In this document: piece by piece, positions 1 through 10,687 of the stretch
Numbering within the stretch: position 1 is the first letter of the stretch
Layout: the number at the start of each line of letters is the position of its first letter
Virus record (IMG/VR): IMGVR_UViG_2537561977_000023
Location: 1-10,687 of that record
DNA length: 10,687 nt
From: a virus
Taxonomy: Duplodnaviria > Heunggongvirae > Uroviricota > Caudoviricetes
Strand: one strand, 5' to 3'
Position numbers and translations under genes: made by a program
The notes under the pieces: generated by a model
Told to the model about the DNA's origin: nothing
What the model saw: the letters and a program-made list of their open reading frames with translations, nothing else
Databases searched by the model: none

Positions 1-933
1 ACATTCCATTAATGCAATACTGAACTGGCTTACCTGAGTTGTATCAATTAGTGCATCTCTGTTTGAGTTAACGGAACCGGTAACAACATAACCTGACCTG
101 TCAGACCAGCCGGGACCATTCCATGTCTGAACAGATGACAGACCACCAAGGCGAATACCTGTAATAAACCTTGAGTTACATTCTGCCTGCGTATATGCGC
201 CAACATCTCTCGCTGATGGCTTGCGGGTTGTGGTGTAAAACTCTGACCAGTCAGCCTCAAATCCATAACCATCACGCGCTGAACGATAAAAAATACCGCC
301 GTTCTTATAATTCACACGGAACTGTACGGCAGGGCAACTCCCCGTATTCATATTGAAGTGGAGTATTAATGCTGTTGCGCCTTTGATATCTGCATCATAA
401 ACACCGCTATTCCAGTTCCAGCCAACAGCTTTATCATTTGCAACCCTGCTTCCTGTTTGCCCTAAAGCAAATGCAGGCTGCTGGTTTTTCGTGTTGTAGT
501 CTCGTCGCCAGCCAGGAGCGTAAGCATCACCATGATTAATATAAGTGAATTGAGCGTTAGTAATTCCGCCACCGCTGGACGTGCTCGGCGTGGTAACGCG
601 TATGGTCATTGCGCCGCGAGTGCCAATAACTTCCACCACAGCACCTGCAAGACAAATATTTCCGCAACCTGTATCTGTAATGACCTTATTATTTGCATAA
701 GCCCATGAGCCTTTGCACATCCAGTAAGGATGGTTAAATGCTCCCTGACTCTCCAGCCACGAAATAAATTGCGCGGTTGTCCAGACCTGACTATCGCCAC
801 CAATATTCAGCCATGAGCTATATGCGCGGCAGGCACCAATATTTTTGGTGAAGGTATCTTTCCCCGGAATATCTGCGCCGTTCTGGTTTTTCTGTAATGC
901 GCCAGAAGCCTGATTTACCGTTTCCTGTAAACC
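1..933 (-). CDS. Tail-fibre C-terminal variable-domain cassette (Mu Sv'/StfE-like), partial: continues beyond coordinate 1; no start codon, begins at the crossover site (silent orientation)
   Basis: Minus-strand frame with codons starting at coordinates divisible by 3 is open for 313 codons from 939 to the window edge. Translation NLGLQETVNQASGALQKNQNGADIPGKDTFTKNIGACRAYSSWLNIGGDSQVW...NGPGWSDRSGYVVTGSVNSNRDALIDTTQ is G/S/T/N/W/Y-rich like distal tail-fibre domains. Not in the ORF track because it has no in-window stop. Upstream stop TAA at 940-942 lies inside the crossover site. Confidence 0.7.
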
Positions 934-947
934 GAGGTTTTAGATAA
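922..947. other. gix/pix/cix-type 26-bp crossover site for the serine invertase (right-hand site of an invertible tail-fibre segment)
   Basis: TTCCTGTAAACC-GA-GGTTTTAGATAA: two imperfect inverted 12-bp half-sites around a central GA dinucleotide, 25/26 identical to the Mu gix sequence as I recall it (TTCCTGTAAACCGAGGTTTTGGATAA). Located 55 bp upstream of the invertase start, as in Mu/P1/e14. No second copy within the window. Confidence 0.7.
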
Positions 948-1001
948 TGGCCGTTTCCGGCCTGCATGGCATGATTTGCGCTTTTGGACGGGAGATTCAG
1001 C

Positions 1002-1588
1002 GTGCTGATTGGCTATGTAAGGGTATCAACAAATGACCAGAATACAGACCTGCAACGAAACGCTCTTGTTTGTGCAGGATGTGAACAAATATTTGAAGAT
1101 AAATTAAGCGGGACAAAGACAGACCGACCGGGATTAAAACGCGCTTTAAAGCGCCTTCAAAAAGGTGACACGCTGGTTGTCTGGAAACTGGATCGCCTCG
1201 GGCGAAGCATGAAACATCTGATTTCTCTCGTCGGGGAACTACGGGAGCGAGGAATTAATTTTCGCAGTCTGACCGACAGCATAGATACATCTTCTCCAAT
1301 GGGGCGTTTTTCTTCCACGTGATGGGTGCCCTGGCTGAAATGGAACGTGAATTAATTGTTGAACGTACACTGGCCGGACTGGCGGCAGCACGCGCACGGG
1401 GGCGCACAGGCGGACGTCGACCGAAGCTGACAAAAGAACAGCATGAGCAAATAGCAAGGCTGATCAAAAACGGGCACGACAGAAAACAACTGGCAATAAT
1501 TTACGGCATTGGTATATCGACGATTTATCGTTACCACCCCGCAGGAGAATCAATCGGAACAATAGAGAAGAGTCAGGAAACAAAATAA
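1002..1588 (+). pseudogene. Serine DNA invertase, Gin/Pin/Cin/Hin family; reading frame broken by a 1-base deficit in the T5 run at 1307-1311 (may be a sequencing artefact)
   Basis: GTG at 1002 preceded by GGAG (991-994). N-terminus [37 protein letters not shown]... is nearly identical to Gin as recalled, with the catalytic serine motif. ORFs 984..1322 and 1319..1588 are the two halves; adding one T gives ...[19 protein letters not shown]... and a protein of about 195 aa. Confidence 0.85.
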
Positions 1589-1616
1589 CCGCTAATCTGA
1601 CCATTAGCGGTTTTTG
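1588..1616. terminator. Bidirectional intrinsic terminator shared by the convergent invertase (+) and U (-) genes
   Basis: Perfect 9-bp stem ACCGCTAAT/ATTAGCGGT with 6-nt loop, followed by TTTTTGTGTT on the plus strand and TATTTTGTTT on the minus strand. Confidence 0.6.
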
Positions 1617-1623
1617 TGTTAAA

Positions 1624-2118
1624 TCAGAACAACCCTTTAACTGAACTGGCCGCGCTGTTAAGGGATGATGTTACCTTATCTTTGAAGCCGGACAGCATAT
1701 CGCTGAACGATGAGGATTGCAGGCGCTCCCGCAAATCCTCATCACAGCGTTCAAGAGTCAGTGAAAATTCTATCTTTTTCGCCTTACCGTAGCGATCAAA
1801 CTCGGAGCGGGTCGTATTCGTTTCGGTCAGGACATACATGCCGTAAATCTGCCCGACGCCATCAATCAGAGGCCAGGGTCGTCCTGTATACGCCTGCGTG
1901 GTCAGCAGCGACAGCGACACTTCGCCACCTGTAATTTCAGGATAAAGCACACCAGAAAGAACGATGCGCTCATCACCTGCACCGATATACTGCCAGCTTG
2001 CCGAACGGTTAACGCGTTCATTTTTCACATGCCGCCAGCTTTTGTTTTGCTGTAACTGCTGATGCGGCAATGTACGCAGCTCAAAAACAAACATGCCGTA
2101 GATCATCATCATGGCCAT
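1624..2118 (-). CDS. U: P2 gpU-like tail protein
   Basis: 164-aa ORF directly downstream of the tape measure gene, in the position of P2 U; ATG at 2118 or 2112 with GGAG upstream. Family assignment is by synteny and recalled similarity. Confidence 0.6.
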   Translation of the reverse strand: MAMMMIYGMFVFELRTLPHQQLQQNKSWRHVKNERVNRSASWQYIGAGDERIVLSGVLYPEITGGEVSLSLLTTQAYTGRPWPLIDGVGQIYGMYVLTETNTTRSEFDRYGKAKKIEFSLTLERCDEDLRERLQSSSFSDMLSGFKDKVTSSLNSAASSVKGLF

Positions 2119-2124
2119 GACTCC

Positions 2125-4966
2125 TCAATCTTTATCGTAAAAACTGCCACGCCCGGCACGGCCGCGCCGTTCCATTTCTGCCCTGACCATTTCACCGACC
2201 AGTTTCGCCAGTTCGCGGGGATTCTGCGTAACAACGTTATGCAGATGAACATGAATTTCACCACCAAATCCGGAGGCAACAGGCTCCCGGTTACGGGAAG
2301 TTACAGGAACTGATGCCACTGGAGAGCGTATGGCCTCCGCCACCGGGCGGGAGCTGGCCGCAACAACAGGGACCAGCGCCGGAGGCAGCGGAGCCGGGAC
2401 CACGGGTGTGATATTAATTGCGGGGGCAGGCTTACTGACCTGCGCAATCTTCCGCTCCTGCCACTCCCCACGAACAGCAAGTGCGCGGGGCAGGTTCTTA
2501 AAGACAATATCGCCGGGGCCAATGCGTTTTTTCGTCTCATCAACCAGCTTACCTGTGTTATCAGCAATTTTGCTGAGTCTGCGTAGCGTCCCGGTATTGC
2601 TGTCTGTGAGCGGTTTGTTGTCTTTGGGTTTATCACCTCCGGTGCCATTGCCATTTTCCACAGGCTTCGGCGGATTGATTTTCGCCAGGTCCCCCTGAAG
2701 CAAGGCAACCTTGTCCTGAAGAATGGCCGCACGCTGTGCGTCTTCGATTTTCTTGCGCGCCCTTTCCGCTTCATCCGGAAGGACGCCAAGTTTTTCAAGT
2801 ATCCACGCCAGCGTATCCAGTAGCATTTTTGCAGGTGTCAGAACAAGTTGTAACGCACCGCCAAGAACGTTACCGAATATCTCGCCAGCACTGGCACATT
2901 TATCCAGCGTTTCCTTGCTGGACTCCATCGGTGACAGCAGCGATTTAAACCAGTTAAAGACCTGAATAATCCCATCGCGCACGACATCAAAAACAGGGCC
3001 AAACCGTTCAAAGGTTTCGCGCAACGGGGTCAGCCTTTCCATAATCCCGCTGAACACCCCGGCAAAAAATGCCCTGATGGGATCCCAGTATTTCCAGATA
3101 AGAACGGCAGCTCCGGCAAGCGCAGCCACGATAAGACTAACCGGACTGAACAGCGCCCCGATAGCGCCACCAAGTAAAGAAACGGAACCCGTCACCATTC
3201 CCCATAATGCAGGCAGAACCCTGACAACATTCATTGATTCGGTCAGGAGAGAAAACCGAGACGCAACGTAGCCAGCTTCCCGTGAAGCACCCCAATAACC
3301 AGAGACAACGAACCAACCGTTGCTGTTGTCGCCAGCAGTGCGCCTCCCGCTATCAGTAACTGGCGCGTCAGTGCCGGGTGGGCCTGCGCCAGCGCCGTCA
3401 CCTTTGAGACAACCCGCGTGAGCCACTGCGTGACAGAACGCAGCGGACCGTCAACCAGATCACTGATGCGAATACGCAGACCTTCCCATGCACTGCCGAG
3501 TGATTTCAGGTTGCCATCAAGGTTATTGGCCATAACCTTTGCCGTGCGTTCTGCCTCACCGCGCGCGCCTTCAAGTTCTTTTCTCAGTTTGGCTAAGAAG
3601 CCGTCACCTGCCGCATCAACGAGGCCCATAAATGATGTGAAAGCCTCTTCTCCGGCAATGTCCTTAAAGAACGATACCCGGTCAACCTCCCCGTATTTGC
3701 GGGTGGCTTTATAGAGATCGGCCAGCACATTCTCCATCGGGCGCATTTTGCCTTTGGCGTCAGCAACTGACACCCCCAGCTCTTTCAGTGCTTCTGCCGC
3801 TGCCTTTGGCGGTGATGACAGATTGGCCAGGCTTTTACGCAACGCTGTACCCGCATCACTCCCCCTGATACCCATCTTCGCCAGCACGCCCGCCATCGCT
3901 GCGGCCTGCTCCAGCGATATTCCCAGCTTACCCGCCACCGGACCTGCATATTTCATGGTTTCGCCCAGTGCGCGAAGGTCAGTGTTGGTACGGGTAAACG
4001 CTGCGGTAAGTGTGTCACCGACCCGGTCCATCTGGTCAGCAGAGAGGCCGAACTGCGTCAGGATATTGGAACCAATATCCGCCGTCTCGCCGAGGTCCAT
4101 ACCGCCAGCCGTTGCCATGCTCAGCACGCCGGGAAGCGCAGCCTGAATGGCCTGCGGTGTGAAACCAGCCATTGCAAGAAATGCCTGTCCACTGGCGGCA
4201 TCGCCTGCGGTGAACTGCGTTTCAGAGCCAAGTTTTAACGCCTGCTCACGCAGCGCCTTAAACTGCGGGCTGTTTTTATCGATTCGCGTCAGTGCCTGAA
4301 CACGGGACATCTCTTTCCCGAACCCGATAGCGGGCTGCAAAAAACGCCCGGCAGCATAGCCGCCCGCTGCCGCCGCACCTGTTGCCAGCGCACCACCTGT
4401 TTTCAGTTTTCCCGCTGTTTCCTGCGCGCGTGAATACCGCTCACGCGCCTGCGTTACACGCGCAAGCGCCCGCCGTTCGCGTTCAAGCTGGTTGTTGTAT
4501 TGTCCGGTGCGTCTGATGGCCTGCTGGATGGTGTTATCGCTGCCTGTCAGGGAATGCCGTGGCGTTTCAGCTCTCCGCCAAGCTCCCGCATTTTCTGAAT
4601 TTCCCGTGTGCGCGATTCATTCAGGCGTTCAAGCCGGATGCTTAACTGCTGCATCAGCTTTTGTTGTTTTTCGCTGAGCACTGTACCCGTGCGTTGTAAC
4701 TGATTAAGGGCGTTAAGCTGGCGTCGTGCTTTCACGATCCCCGCATCCGCTTTACTGACAGCGTCACGGGCGCGCTCAAATGAACGCGCCTGACGCCCGA
4801 GATTTTTGATCGCCCCCTGCGTTCGCTGGATGGAGTCACCAAACTGCCCCATCAGGCGGCGGGCGTTTTCGGCAGGCCGGGTCAGCCTGTCAACGGCGCT
4901 GAAAGCGACCCGGATATCAAGAGTCTTCATTGTCTGCATTCCCGCTGCGAAGTGCCGCCCGCTCAC
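2125..4966 (-). pseudogene. T: Tail tape measure protein (P2 gpT-like), about 940 codons, split over three frames by two 1-base deficits (may be sequencing artefacts)
   Basis: ORFs 4547..4966, 3243..4340 and 2125..3426 are consecutive pieces of one gene. Coiled-coil-like N-terminal part, hydrophobic glycine-rich segments (LLIAGGALLATTATVGSLSLVIGVL; GAIGALFSPVSLIVAALAGAAVLIW) typical of tape measure proteins. Frame restored by adding one base at G3 4550-4552 and at A4 3252-3255 (plus-strand bases). Start uncertain: GTG 4966, ATG 4939 or ATG 4930. Confidence 0.75.
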
Positions 4967-5446
4967 GCCAGCTGACCACTTCGCCGGGCGTCATCATGAA
5001 GATTTCGGCGGGCGACCAGTTAAAAATAACGGCAATATCTGCCACAAAGTCTTCTATGTGCTCAAAGCACACAACCGTGATCAGGCTTCCGTCGCCTGTT
5101 CGTTCTTCCCGCCAGAGTCCGCACCGCTCAAAAAATTTACGGCAACCACACATAACTGAATAAAGTCACGGGATGCCATTTTTTTGATCGTCACTTCATC
5201 CAGTCGCGGTGATGTCACGCGTGACAGCAGCGTAAACATGGATTCCGCTTTCAGATTCAGCACATCAGACAGCGACAAATCTCGCAGAGATCCAGCCTGC
5301 TCAATAGCTCCGGTGATCTCCACATACGTGATTTTTTCGCCGCCTCGCTCAATTGGTTGGGTAAGTTTTACGCCACGCTCACTGGTTTCTTTCACAGTGT
5401 CAGCAACGACCGTGTTTTCGGTATCGATGTTTTTCGTCTCTTTCAT
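4917..5446 (-). CDS. Tail assembly chaperone E+E' fusion made by programmed -1 ribosomal frameshift (P2 E/E' type; analogous to lambda G/GT)
   Basis: The E frame (5446..5081) and the overlapping -1 frame (ORF 4917..5153) are joined at slippery heptamer T TTT TTG (minus strand; plus coordinates 5129-5135). Position immediately upstream of the tape measure gene, as expected. Confidence 0.65.
5081..5446 (-). CDS. E: Tail assembly chaperone E (P2 gpE-like), 121 aa
   Basis: ATG at 5446 with AAGGAG 5 nt upstream; located between the tube and tape measure genes; contains the slippery site near its 3' end. Confidence 0.7.
   Translation of the reverse strand: MKETKNIDTENTVVADTVKETSERGVKLTQPIERGGEKITYVEITGAIEQAGSLRDLSLSDVLNLKAESMFTLLSRVTSPRLDEVTIKKMASRDFIQLCVVAVNFLSGADSGGKNEQATEA
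5129..5135 (-). other. Slippery heptanucleotide T TTT TTG for the E/E' -1 programmed frameshift
   Basis: X XXY YYZ heptamer in the E zero frame (AAT TTT TTG); the -1 frame stays open for 70 further codons to the stop at 4917-4919. Confidence 0.6.
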
Positions 5447-5500
5447 CAGGAAACTCCTTTCAGTCAGAGGCGACGCACTGCGCCGCCTGCATATTACTTA

Positions 5501-6011
5501 TCAGCCAAGCCCGAGCGCGGAACGGATGCGATCGGGCACAATGTCCCTGCCGTCCTTCCGGTAAATGAAGTTCAGCAGGTCAATCTCCCACAACGGGCGA
5601 TCGTTAACACTCAGCTTGTAGTAGGTGTTTTTAATGGCGTAAGTGTGTGATGTGGCTTCGCCCTGTTTGGCTTCCCCCATATCAATTTCCGTCACACGTC
5701 CGCGCATTTCGACTTCATACAGGTCGCTTTCAGCGTCGGTGTAGTATTCACCCGCAAAACGCAGCAGCGTACCGTCAATCGTGCCGCCATACTTCAGGAA
5801 CAACTCACGAACTGCGCCCCCATGACAAAGCTCGCATCAAGCGCGGAGTCGTCCAGGCCGAGATCAATACTTACTGCCCCCATCATGCCACCACCCCGGT
5901 AGCTGTCGGTTTTGCGCGTCAGTTTAGGCAGAGTGACGGACGTCACCTTACCCACTTCGTTTTCACCATCCACAAACAGCGTAAAAAACGAAGATTTTTT
6001 GGTACAGCCAT
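5501..6011 (-). pseudogene. FII: Major tail tube protein (P2 gpFII-like), about 170 codons, interrupted by two 1-base deficits (may be sequencing artefacts)
   Basis: ATG at 6011 overlaps the sheath stop (TGATG) and has GGGAGG upstream. Pieces MAVPK / KSSFFTLFVDGENEVGKVTSVTLPKLTRKTDSYRGGGMMGAVSIDLGLDDSALDASFVMG / GAVRELFLKYGGTIDGTLLRFAGEYY...SALGLG. Frame restored by adding one base to T6 5995-6000 and to C5 5817-5821 (plus-strand runs). Confidence 0.7.
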
Positions 6012-7194
6012 CAGACACCTCCCAGCACCGCAAATGCGGGACCAAAGAATTCATCAGTAAACGTCTGGTAAAGCTCCATATCTTCCAGTGGCGGAACGGG
6101 CGTATATTTGTAGCGAATACGCACGCGCCCCTGACGTAAATCCGTGGTGCCGTTATCCACCACGTCATACCAGCACGACGCCCCAATCAGTTTCCCGGCA
6201 GTCACCAGTGAATCCAGTTTTGCCCTGATGGCACTGATAACATCCTTCACGTTCGCAGGCGTCAGTGGACTGTCGATGGTTTCAAACTGCGCTTCCGCAA
6301 TTGAATCAGCCAGCACCTGTGCGGTTCGGGTATACACCTCAAAGATGTAGGCGTTCGTTTCCGGTGTGCGGTTGCCCCAGAAGCGGAACCCGTTACGACG
6401 AATAATGGTCGTGATTTCTTTGTTGTTGAGGCTGTTGGCATCACTGTCTTCGGCCTGTAACGACCAGAACACATGCCTCGACATCCCCAGCACATTTTTA
6501 ACCGGAACGTTGGACAGTGATTTGTGCCATCCCTGCTCATGGTCAATGTACGCACGAAGGCCGCACGCACAGGCAGGCGCGGGGAACGTTTCGTTTTTGC
6601 CACTTTTCGGGTTCCAGGCGATGAAGTCCGGCCATAAGAGCATCACCTCACGTTCGTTGAATTTCTGGCGGTAGGTAATCGCCTCAGCCATCGTGTTACA
6701 GCCATGACATGAGGCATACACAAACGCGCGCAGTTTACCTGCAATCACGCACAGGGATTTTGCACCGCCTCCGTGTCCAGCTCCGGCGCGGCCAGAATAC
6801 GCGGACGGTATCCGATGCTTTCATCCTGCTCTGCAACAAGCAGCGCATACATCCCCGTATAGCTGCCGTCATCCTCAGAACCACCGATAACCAGTTGATC
6901 CTGCGTCTTTCCGTCTTCTTCTTTGTGTTCAGCCACGCGAACGACGATCACCTTTGTGCTCACCTGGTCTGCGATGGCCTTAAGCGCACGATAAAGCGTC
7001 CCCGTTGTCCCGCATTTTCCCAGCACGTCATTGACGCGGGTCAGCAGTGTGGGCTTGTTCAGCGGGAACAGCTTCGCGTCCGCATCATCCGCCGTTGCCA
7101 CGATACCGATAACGCTGGAATCAACATCGTTAATCGCTGTTACCAGGTCGGTATTTTCCGTAACACGGGCACCATGAAAACGAGTTTCACTCAT
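6011..7194 (-). pseudogene. FI: Tail sheath protein (P2 gpFI-like), about 394 codons, interrupted by one 1-base deficit (may be a sequencing artefact)
   Basis: ORFs 6745..7194 (N-terminal) and 6011..6748 (C-terminal) are one gene. Motifs ILAAPELDTEAVQ, GFRFWGNRT, YTRTAQV and YTPVPPLE match P2 sheath as recalled. ATG at 7194 with AAGGGG upstream. Frame restored by adding one base to T4 6758-6761 (plus strand). Confidence 0.8.
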
Positions 7195-7351
7195 AGCTTC
7201 AGCCCCTTGTATCCGTTAAATGATTCGGCAACAATCATCACCCACCACGCGCGTAATCTCACCCCTGCGCCGTTCTCCCGCCACGGCGACAACGAAAAGC
7301 AGTAACCCCCTCCGCACGCACATGCGACCATGCCGCACAGGGAGGGAGCAG

Positions 7352-8461
7352 ATGACCGACACCACCATGCAATTGCTCAGTCAGAGCACAGCCCCCGTGA
7401 AAATGCCGGATTTTGATATTCTCGCGGAGGGTAAAACGCTGTCCGGCGTGGCAGAGCGCCTGATGAGCCTGTCGCTGACCGACAACCGGGGATTTGAAGC
7501 GGACCAGCTCACCATCACGCTGGATGATGCGGATGGTCAGTTGCAGCTACCACCACGGGGCGCGCGCCTGACGGTTCTCATTGGCTGGAAAGGAGAACCA
7601 CTGACAGAAAAAGGCACTTATATTGTTGATGAAATCGCTCACGAAGGACCGCCGGACAGGCTGACTGTTTCAGCCAGAAGCGCAGATTTTCGGGATGAAT
7701 TTAACGTTAAACGTGAGGTGTCCTGGCATGATGTGACCGTTGAGCGTGTGGTATCCGCCATCGCTCACCGGTACGGTCTGAAACCGCAAATCAGCGAAAT
7801 GCTGATGGATATTGAAATCGACCACGCCGACCAGACCGAAGAAAGCGACATGTCCTTCCTTACGCGCATGGCGGAAATGCTGGGCGCAATCACTACGGTA
7901 AAAAGCGGTAATCTGTTATTCATCATGCCAGGCGGTGGCGTGAACGCACAGGGCCAGCCGTTGCCCTCGTTCGCCATCACGCGCAGCAGTGGCGATCGCC
8001 ATCAGTTCCGCATTGCTGACCGCGAAGCGTATACGGGGGTACGCGCTTACTGGCTTGATCTTAATTACGGGAAAAAGAAAAAAGTCAGCGTGAAACGCCG
8101 CAAACCGCCCAAGCCCAAAAAGGAGAAAAGCAGCAGCCGTGAAGGTGATTATATGGAAGGCGCGGAAGGCAATGTGTTTGTGTTACGCAAGACTTATCAG
8201 AACGAGCAGGCAGCAAGACGCGCAGCGGCGGCAAAGTGGCAGCAGCTACAACGCGGAGCCGCATCATTCTCCATCACGCTGGCGCGTGGACGTGCAGAAC
8301 TCTACCCCGAAATGCATGGCACGGTAACAGGATTTAAAAGCGAGATTGATAATCAGGACTGGATCATTGCAAAAGCCGGGCACACCATTGATAACAGCGG
8401 CTTTACCACACAGCTTGAGCTTGAGGCAAAAATCCCGGAATGGATAGCAGAAACAGAGTGA
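7352..8461 (+). CDS. D: P2 gpD-like tail protein (phage late control D family), 369 aa
   Basis: ATG at 7352 preceded by GGAGGGAG (7341-7348). The track's 7220 start adds a low-complexity N-terminal extension with no RBS and overlaps the FI promoter region, so 7352 is preferred. Confidence 0.75.
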   Translation: MTDTTMQLLSQSTAPVKMPDFDILAEGKTLSGVAERLMSLSLTDNRGFEADQLTITLDDADGQLQLPPRGARLTVLIGWKGEPLTEKGTYIVDEIAHEGPPDRLTVSARSADFRDEFNVKREVSWHDVTVERVVSAIAHRYGLKPQISEMLMDIEIDHADQTEESDMSFLTRMAEMLGAITTVKSGNLLFIMPGGGVNAQGQPLPSFAITRSSGDRHQFRIADREAYTGVRAYWLDLNYGKKKKVSVKRRKPPKPKKEKSSSREGDYMEGAEGNVFVLRKTYQNEQAARRAAAAKWQQLQRGAASFSITLARGRAELYPEMHGTVTGFKSEIDNQDWIIAKAGHTIDNSGFTTQLELEAKIPEWIAETE

Positions 8462-8503
8462 GCAACTTAGAATAGCGGCAACACCACGTTAAGGGAGGTC
8501 GCT

Positions 8504-8764
8504 ATGTTCCGTTGTCCGCTTTGTGGCGCATCTGCCCGTATCCGCACCAGTCGTCCGGAAAATGATTCAAACACCGTGCGGCAAAAGTATTACCAGTGTA
8601 ACAACCTGGAATGCGGCGTATGCTTCTCAACACTGGAAGCTTTCCATAAATTCACATCAAAACACGCCTCCGGCGTTCACTCTTCAGAAGGTATCCCGTG
8701 GCATGAACTGCCAGCTTCACACAGGGGAAACAATCAGATGAGTTTGCCTTTACCTCAGAATTAA
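8504..8764 (+). CDS. ogr: Ogr/Delta-family zinc-finger late-gene transcriptional activator, 86 aa
   Basis: MFRCPLCGASARIRTSR...YYQCNNLECGVCF has the CxxC...CxxxxC zinc-binding pattern and close similarity to P2 Ogr as recalled (MFHCPLC...HQCQNVNC). ATG at 8504 with AGGGAGG 5 nt upstream. Sits after D, as in P2. Confidence 0.8.
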   Translation: MFRCPLCGASARIRTSRPENDSNTVRQKYYQCNNLECGVCFSTLEAFHKFTSKHASGVHSSEGIPWHELPASHRGNNQMSLPLPQN

Positions 8765-8852
8765 CAGGCAGAATTGCCGGAGTAACAAAAAAGCGATAGA
8801 TTACGTGCGGGTGCCTTTCGGCTGATGGTCGGAGGGAATACCCGAAGGCCAG

Positions 8853-9089
8853 ATGTGGAAAGGCCCCGGAAAACATTTTTGTTTAACCGAGGCCCTAACA
8901 CTTCTTACCTTCGCAAGTAGAAGGTTAGCGCCTCTCCTCTCAGGAGACAAGCGTTATGACGCAAATTCCGTTAAAAACCCTGTTACTTTGCATAACTGCG
9001 GTAGCGATAATCTGGATCCTCCACACATCACCGTGCGAGTTACGATTCAGGTTTGCTGGCACGGAAATTGCGGCATTCTTACTATGTAA
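8853..9089 (+). CDS. mok-like overlapping reading frame of the hok locus (translational coupling frame), 78 aa
   Basis: ORF begins 103 nt upstream of the hok ATG and ends 7 nt before the hok stop in another frame, the arrangement known for mok/hok. Its own sequence is not distinctive. Confidence 0.4.
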   Translation: MWKGPGKHFCLTEALTLLTFASRRLAPLLSGDKRYDANSVKNPVTLHNCGSDNLDPPHITVRVTIQVCWHGNCGILTM

Positions 9090-9096
9090 TAAGTAA
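8956..9096 (+). CDS. Hok/Gef-family type I toxin (small membrane peptide), 46 aa; absent from ORF track
   Basis: Translation MTQIPLKTLLLCITAVAIIWILHTSPCELRFRFAGTEIAAFLLCNK: N-terminal hydrophobic helix followed by the conserved C-E-L-R-F-R ... E-(V/I)-A-A-F core seen in Hok, HokB and Gef as recalled. AGGAG at 8942-8946, 9 nt before the ATG. Confidence 0.75.
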   Translation: MTQIPLKTLLLCITAVAIIWILHTSPCELRFRFAGTEIAAFLLCNK

Positions 9097-9184
9097 GATA
9101 ACCGCGACGGGGGAGTAATCCCCCGTCAATCGGTTGCTAAGGTTGGTCGAAGCGGCACCCTATCTCACTGGCATGAACAACAAA

Positions 9185-9216
9185 CCCGCAGCGTAAAAAC
9201 TGCGGGTTTTCTTTTT
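9185..9216 (+). terminator. Intrinsic terminator, plus-strand orientation (candidate 3' end of the hok transcript)
   Basis: Stem CCCGCAG/CTGCGGG with 8-nt loop, followed by TTTTCTTTTT. Confidence 0.55.
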
Positions 9217-9248
9217 GGTTCCCTCATTCATGAGGACACCAAAAACAA

Positions 9249-9278
9249 AGCCCACAGCATAGAATCTGTGGGCTTTTT
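9249..9278. terminator. Intrinsic terminator hairpin, possibly bidirectional
   Basis: Perfect 9-bp stem AGCCCACAG/CTGTGGGCT with 8-nt loop; TTTTT follows on the plus strand and TTGTTTTTGG on the minus strand. Confidence 0.55.
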
Positions 9279-9352
9279 GCATTCAAAGATGGACGTTATA
9301 TGGACACTTAAAAATAAAATCCATTTATTTTCAAATAATTAAACTTCTGCTT

Positions 9353-9374
9353 AAAGCGCCCGCAGGCGCTTTTT
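9353..9374. terminator. Hairpin immediately 3' of serS (likely serS terminator; T-run is stronger on the plus strand)
   Basis: AAAGCGCC-CGCA-GGCGCTTT perfect 8-bp stem with 4-nt loop, about 20 nt downstream of the serS stop (9395-9397). Confidence 0.5.
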
Positions 9375-9394
9375 AGATTCAGAAAAATTGGGTA

Positions 9395-10687
<1,293 letters not shown>

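Follow-up and report, generated by a model that had tools for sequence, protein, structure and literature searches.

The window analysed here – the whole stretch of 10,687 nucleotides – comprises nt 1-10687 of ADUP01000041.1, a contig of the draft genome of Escherichia coli LT-68 (GCA_000188815.2), and carries a gene for a serine DNA invertase of the Gin family (1002..1588, plus strand). On the 3' side of this gene, all on the minus strand, come gpU, the tape measure, gpE/E', the tail tube and the sheath; beyond the sheath follow gpD, ogr and, on the plus strand, a hok homologue, before serS is reached on the minus strand. The host element is a P2/P88-like prophage beside serS, an arrangement common in E. 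coli. Between the convergent invertase and gpU genes lies an inverted repeat (I5, 1579..1620; 18-nt arms, 89% complementarity), in which a hairpin is followed by a T run – a terminator candidate that, judged by its sequence, is likely bidirectional. The hok homologue, an intact 46-aa ORF of the Hok/Gef family between ogr and serS (8956-9096, plus strand), is uncalled in the LT-68 annotation and called in relatives; an Rfam scan of the window returned no family at gathering score, Sok included.

As deposited, the invertase gene is 587 nt long, against 588 nt (195 aa) in relatives, and is broken into two ORFs at a run of five T residues (T5, 1307..1311; plus strand), which stands in the context CCAATGGGGCG-TTTTT-CTTCCACGTGATGG, positions 1300-1322 reading TGGGGCGTTTTTCTTCCACGTGA. 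This run is the site of an apparent -1 deletion: all nearest relatives, and Mu gin as well, have T6 here. The 5' ORF, listed as 984..1322 (plus strand) and terminating in ...PMGRFSST followed by the stop codon, has a 106-aa product; the true invertase start is the GTG at 1002, which lines up with the GTG start of Mu gin, and the stretch from there (1002..1322) encodes invertase residues 1-103, among which is the VRVST motif that holds the catalytic serine, and ends with SST and the stop. The 3' ORF (1319..1588, plus strand), starting at GTG 1319 or ATG 1322, encodes the last ~30 residues of the Resolvase domain and HTH_7 in a product of 88/89 aa, whose 88-aa form is annotated in LT-68 as EFZ57759.1.

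In Pfam searches, the first ORF matches positions 2-112 of the 145-position Resolvase profile (PF00239, E = 1.6e-36), while the second matches Resolvase positions 116-144 and HTH_7 (PF02796, E = 7.6e-14) and, in addition, the DNA-binding domain of Hin (1hcr); the gene repaired by an extra T yields a 195-aa protein with a single continuous Resolvase plus HTH_7 match. Because the two profile halves adjoin, and join after the repair, the ORFs belong to a single gene, with a one-base offset between its halves, and are not a chance pair. The repaired protein matches the Gin structures 4m6f and 3uj3 with E ~1e-100, 102 of the 103 N-terminal residues being identical; its VRVSTNDQ motif aligns with Gin (the 3uj3 entry has VRVATNDQ, Ala replacing that Ser). 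Its identity is 85% to Mu Gin, 97.9% to the protein of phage P88 and 99.5% to the invertase of Escherichia phage 500465-2. A sequence-only reading of this DNA had described a Gin/Pin-type invertase, frameshifted as written, and the Pfam and Gin structure matches and the alignment with Mu gin bear it out; the split it placed at T5 1307-1311, between ORFs 984..1322 (ending PMGRFSST and the stop) and 1319..1588, is exactly the one in the ORF list.

The same reading had T5 separating the catalytic domain from the HTH part. The gene is indeed split at T5, but residue 103 (...PMGRF), the last before the break, still lies within the Pfam Resolvase domain, and the 3' ORF holds the last ~30 residues of that domain; because of this position, the 5' product would lack both those residues and the DNA-binding domain. 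We take the ~30 residues, from the structures of gamma-delta resolvase and Gin, to be the long helix E, engaged in dimer and tetramer formation. An uninterrupted two-domain polypeptide of ~190 aa, absent from the gene as deposited, is present in all nearest relatives that cover the gene, and its absence here is most likely technical.

A gix-like 26-bp crossover site, TTCCTGTAAACCGAGGTTTTAGATAA (922..947, plus strand), marks the right boundary of an invertible segment. It is the sole match in the window, with zero expected by chance, and is identical at 25 of 26 positions to the site beside Mu gin. Within the segment, on the minus strand and reading away from the crossover site, lies a silent alternative C-terminal tail-fibre exon (Sv'-like; 1..939): between the crossover site and the start of the window, the frame runs for 313 codons free of stops, and it has its counterparts in minus-strand 'tail fiber protein' genes of relatives. 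The left end of ADUP01000041.1 – where the window begins too – falls within this segment, so the orientation of the LT-68 segment is unreadable from the window, which holds a single crossover site, the inverted partner lying off the contig. Inverted arms at 494-558 and 3530-3594 delimit the segment of the relative L015, which would span window positions ~-2150 to 952; this puts the left site ~2.1 kb before window position 1.

The recombinational enhancer presumably lies inside gin, in its 5' part, and the corresponding stretch here (sis; 1002..1180, plus strand) is a presumed Fis-dependent enhancer on the strength of DNA near-identical to Mu gin (3 differences in ~177 positions). In the Hin system, the enhancer is ~100 bp from a hix site (PMC3798978). 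By homology to Mu Gin, invertase dimers would bind two inverted 26-bp gix-like sites and, with Fis at the enhancer in the 5' part of the invertase's own gene, would invert the ~3-kb segment; inversion would swap the tail-fibre C-terminal exon and the assembly chaperone and thereby change host range.

Through the gpD protein of the window, 21 further contigs were found that carry this prophage at this locus, the nearest relatives beside serS being L015 (CP065611.1, a 5.19-Mb record) and L017 (UFYN01000002.1). Across 18,463 aligned columns (18.5 kb), LT-68 is 99.88% identical to these two, the differences consisting of 13 substitutions and nine gaps. Each of the nine gaps is a single base absent from LT-68, there are no insertions, and eight of the nine lie within runs of the same base. 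The invertase run (T6 to T5 at 1307, plus strand) is one of them. Another falls in the silent tail-fibre exon (CC to C at 29), two in the minus-strand tape measure gene (A5 to A4, as read on the plus strand, at 3252..3255, and A3 to A2 at 4553..4554), two in the minus-strand tail tube gene (C6 to C5 at 5817..5821 and A7 to A6 at 5983..5988) and one in the minus-strand sheath gene, where a single T is lost at 6762..6763 (TTTTGTCACC becoming TTTTGCACC); the remaining two lie further along the contig, in ftsK (T6 to T5 at contig 14062) and in intergenic DNA (T8 to T7 at contig 17926). The shortened runs in LT-68 amount to 5 of 21 among runs of at least 6 nt, 1 of 69 among runs of 5 nt and 3 of ~13,500 among shorter ones. 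Of the 13 substitutions, seven are concentrated at 25-241, in the distal silent exon adjoining the contig end, where a paralogous segment could have acted as donor in gene conversion or the contig end could be mis-assembled.

The consequences for the annotation reach well past the invertase. The tape measure (2125-4966, minus strand) is represented in LT-68 by pieces of 357, 355 and 127 aa, compared with 935 aa in relatives; the tail tube (5501-6018, minus strand) by 100 and 74 aa, compared with 170 aa; the sheath (6011-7194, minus strand) by 245 and 149 aa, compared with 394 aa; and ftsK (12898-17042 on the LT-68 contig, L019) by ORFs of 1015 and 378 aa, compared with an FtsK of 1329-1381 aa. 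Exact matches to fragment proteins of the window, the 88-aa invertase product included, are annotated in LT-68 as EFZ57758, EFZ57759, EFZ57766, EFZ57768 and EFZ57769. In L015-L018 and L020-L024, every affected gene that is covered is full length (195, 935, 170, 394 and 1329-1381 aa), and the closest relatives with a contig across the T run are all T6. The LT-68 sheath fragments were found in no other assembly among ~15 billion proteins. As for the invertase gene itself, LT-68 equals L015 except for the missing T and stands one substitution away from T6 genes in 16 complete genomes.

A Logan contig, SRR11460450_559 (L014), was considered as an independent copy of the LT-68 lesions, as it shares the 100-aa tube fragment, but its 26 substitutions in 3.3 kb mark another strain, and it has homopolymer deletions that are its own; it therefore speaks neither for nor against the lesions.

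We hold it very probable, on these sequence comparisons, that the T5 of LT-68 is a draft-assembly error – a T6 run under-called – and not a mutation of the strain. What leads to this reading is that indels are about as numerous as substitutions, that all of them are deletions whose frequency depends on run length, and that they strike ftsK and intergenic DNA as well as the prophage; they are private to one assembly, hit conserved genes and are absent from near-identical genomes. The true LT-68 gene is, then, most likely an intact 195-aa serine invertase of the Gin family, in a P88/P2-like prophage beside serS; a technical origin of the deletion pattern, and a Gin-like mode of action for the enzyme, are what we infer. 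The sequence-only reading had made its conclusions conditional on the lesion being real, which it is likely not: it is one of nine private LT-68 deletions, relatives have T6, and in complete genomes T5 is found 0 times and T6 120 times. A literature search for the sequencing platform or a genome paper of LT-68 brought nothing useful.

The count just quoted refers to complete E. coli genomes, of which 120 records contain the 82-nt context with T6 exactly, and no record contains the exact 81-nt one with T5; the best 60 rows for the T5 query all span 82 bases in the record, that is, T6. Elsewhere the shorter allele does occur. A product identical to the 106-aa one is encoded on at least 13 other contigs, the genes all being T5, and these fall into at least four haplotypes (L003/L006/L009/L010; L004/L005/L012; L007, with further gaps; and L011b). 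L026, also T5, is a single substitution from the LT-68 haplotype, in a prophage that is only 94% identical overall. Because the tape measure, tube and sheath genes on the T5 contigs are intact where covered – except in L007, for which no tape-measure product is called – these assemblies are not generally error-prone, and the T6 run is, as far as the contigs tell, a genuine, rare and recurrent site of mutation. L007 (SEVP01000003.1, 1042-1640) is a serS-side copy with T5, two more one-base gaps and a diverged 3' end; either this copy has truly decayed or its assembly, too, is noisy.

The 88-aa C-terminal ORF, found on 232 contigs, might suggest a widespread frameshift, a candidate we rejected: of the six places shown, one is T5 (L026), one is T6 with an IS element in the crossover site (L027), three are contigs whose first base is nt 1322, each representing more places of that kind, and the last is LT-68 itself. 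Such contigs do not count as T5 alleles. Contigs L029-L031, and ~16 similar Logan contigs, start exactly at window position 1322, 10 nt past the T run; presumably, the assembly graph is broken here by the divergence of two invertase copies within a genome.

Other copies of the cassette are damaged in other ways. In Shigella sonnei 3233-85 (L027; AKND01000018.1, 2351-3615), an IS3-family element sits inside the gix-like crossover site, with window positions 937-940 duplicated on both sides, and a second IS copy lies further into the segment; the invertase is T6, and the insertion is clearly a real, and different, way of disabling the switch. In E. coli WS1933D (L002; NZ_CP035836.1, 5644-6230), the serS-side invertase is annotated as a 'frameshifted' pseudogene owing to an A5 to A4 change at the equivalent of window position 1159, not the run affected in LT-68; the record marks its baseplate J gene, too, as frameshifted.

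Real T6 to T5 changes thus do occur (on at least 13 contigs, with L026 near the LT-68 haplotype), and the lesion in LT-68 may be real. On that account, LT-68 would make no full-length invertase, and its segment would invert only through a Gin/Pin-type enzyme acting in trans. The invertase is dispensable for phage growth; the same allele turns up in independent assemblies and several haplotypes with the neighbouring phage genes intact; and other copies have been damaged otherwise, as in WS1933D (A5 to A4) and S. sonnei 3233-85 (IS in the crossover site). Set against this are the eight other private deletions, ftsK among them, and the absence of insertions over 18.5 kb with 13 substitutions, together with the T6 run of all closest relatives that cover it and the absence of T5 among 120 exact-context copies in complete genomes; moreover, with about one quarter of the long runs shortened here, and T5 rare in relatives, a technical origin is much the likelier. 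A real mutation in LT-68 is, all told, unlikely.

Would a genuine T5 freeze the switch, as the sequence-only reading had proposed? Two relatives bear on this point. L004 (AASIEN010000037.1) and L005 (MSJS02000080.1) carry the same prophage, both with T5, and their flanks differ by 1 and 2 mismatches over 7.2 and 10.4 kb (3 SNPs in 17.6 kb), while their 2.69-kb segments (7239-9950 in each) are exact reverse complements. At the crossover sites, the outer half-sites stay and the inner half-sites are exchanged precisely: the left site reads ...CTCGGTTTACGAGAA in L004 and ...CTCGGTTTACAGGAA in L005, and the right site TTCCTGTAAACCGAGG... and TTCTCGTAAACCGAGG..., respectively. Between them, the two sequences record a clean inversion of the Gin type that a prophage with T5 has recently undergone. 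Even a genuine T5 therefore does not freeze the segment, since both T5 prophages show opposite orientations with their half-sites swapped, and that part of the earlier proposal falls; the two orientations belong to the relatives L004 and L005, LT-68 showing one segment end only.

The simplest cause of the L004/L005 inversion is an invertase from another element. Precedents exist: e14 bears a function that complements Mu gin, and its P segment is inverted by PinQ, which another cryptic prophage encodes (PMC12529663, its ref. 65). In the 5.4-kb contig L011 (AIHP01000018.1), an intact T6 invertase (1603-2190, minus strand) and a T5 copy (5003-5372, plus strand) stand at opposite segment ends; the contig is probably an assembly path joining two prophages through a shared segment, and shows that T5 and T6 copies can coexist in one genome. 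The short-read contigs L009, L010, L012 and L020 stop exactly at the crossover site (window 940-948), as would be expected if both orientations, or several related segments, were present in the sequenced culture.

Taken further, the T6 run of Gin-family invertase genes might be regarded as a recurrent natural off-switch of the switch itself, its T5 alleles having arisen or spread on at least four haplotypes of P2-like prophages that are intact in other respects, with orientation still being changed by invertases of co-resident prophages or by rare restoration of the frame. We consider this very unlikely; were it true, the supply of invertase in a lysogen would be shared among its prophages and would not be a property of any one of them.

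It is also conceivable, although extremely doubtful, that all nine deletions are real – LT-68 being a mutator deficient in mismatch repair, or its prophage being in decay – and that the invertase is a genuine pseudogene. A mismatch-repair-deficient strain would likewise gather homopolymer deletions, dependence on run length is also a mark of replication slippage, and structural genes of the prophage, on which selection may be nil, account for five of the nine. Yet the nine deletions are matched by zero insertions, and they are about as numerous as the substitutions, when even in mutators base substitutions outnumber indels; the FtsK motor domain is lost through one of the deletions, a second lies in intergenic core DNA, and the locus is without the nonsense mutations, IS elements and larger deletions seen in truly decayed copies such as L027.

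Recoding, by a -1 ribosomal slip on CG-UUU-UUC or by transcriptional slippage that yields a little full-length invertase, can be dismissed as barely credible: although the P-site tRNA-Phe could, from the sequence, re-pair in the -1 frame on the U run, and although T5 prophages occur in both orientations, the X-XXY-YYZ heptamer is absent, the fold of the 89 nt downstream is no more stable than that of shuffled sequences (z = 0.25), the runs known to cause transcriptional slippage are far longer than T5, the single-ORF T6 form is overwhelmingly common (Mu gin included) and trans-acting invertases are a simpler cause of the inversions (PMC12529663). As a candidate for a programmed -1 frameshift gene, the locus was rejected on the missing heptamer, the fold score and a two-frame layout that is not kept in relatives.

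Returning to an under-called T6 run as the preferred explanation, this seeming pseudogene should not be counted among real features, and it offers nothing new; if the lesion were real, it would add one more pseudogenised prophage invertase, a known and common outcome. The practical lesson is one of caution, as this draft contig bears about one homopolymer deletion, or spurious frameshift, per 2 kb, and 'pseudogenes' taken from it (tape measure, tube, sheath, ftsK and invertase) require read-level confirmation. Of modest interest in its own right is the illustration, by near-identical T5 prophages in opposite orientations, that tail-fibre segments can be served in trans.

The deletions of LT-68 resemble homopolymer under-calls of draft genomes in being of a single base, in rising steeply with run length, in affecting core and accessory genes alike and in being absent from close relatives; the noisy assembly L014 has the same kind of lesion in the same type of prophage. 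Among annotated phages, the P2-like P88 and Escherichia phage 500465-2 offer the same prophage type with an annotated DNA invertase, although their genes are uninterrupted. Pin of e14, PinQ, Cin of P1 and Hin of Salmonella belong to the same subfamily of small serine recombinases, dependent on Fis and an enhancer, and enzymes of this group act on each other's segments in trans (PMC12529663); they are more distant in sequence from the LT-68 invertase, and their own segments and cargo differ. The most instructive comparison is with Gin and the G segment of Mu, which has a like plan: a constant tail-fibre part, a segment with two C-terminal exons and two chaperone genes, and an invertase outside it. 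Besides its overall protein identity (85%, with 102 of 103 in residues 1-103), the LT-68 gene shares with Mu gin ~97% DNA identity in the 5' half and a crossover site alike at 25 of 26 positions, and Mu gin has the T6 run that the repair restores. It differs from Mu gin in its surroundings – a P2/P88-like prophage, beside gpU and the tape measure, and not a Mu genome – in the diverged C-terminal third (the HTH region and tail) and, as deposited, in the one-base gap. With both domains of the enzyme, one gix-like site and a silent exon, the cassette is, as its sequence would have it, Gin-type by function and descent.
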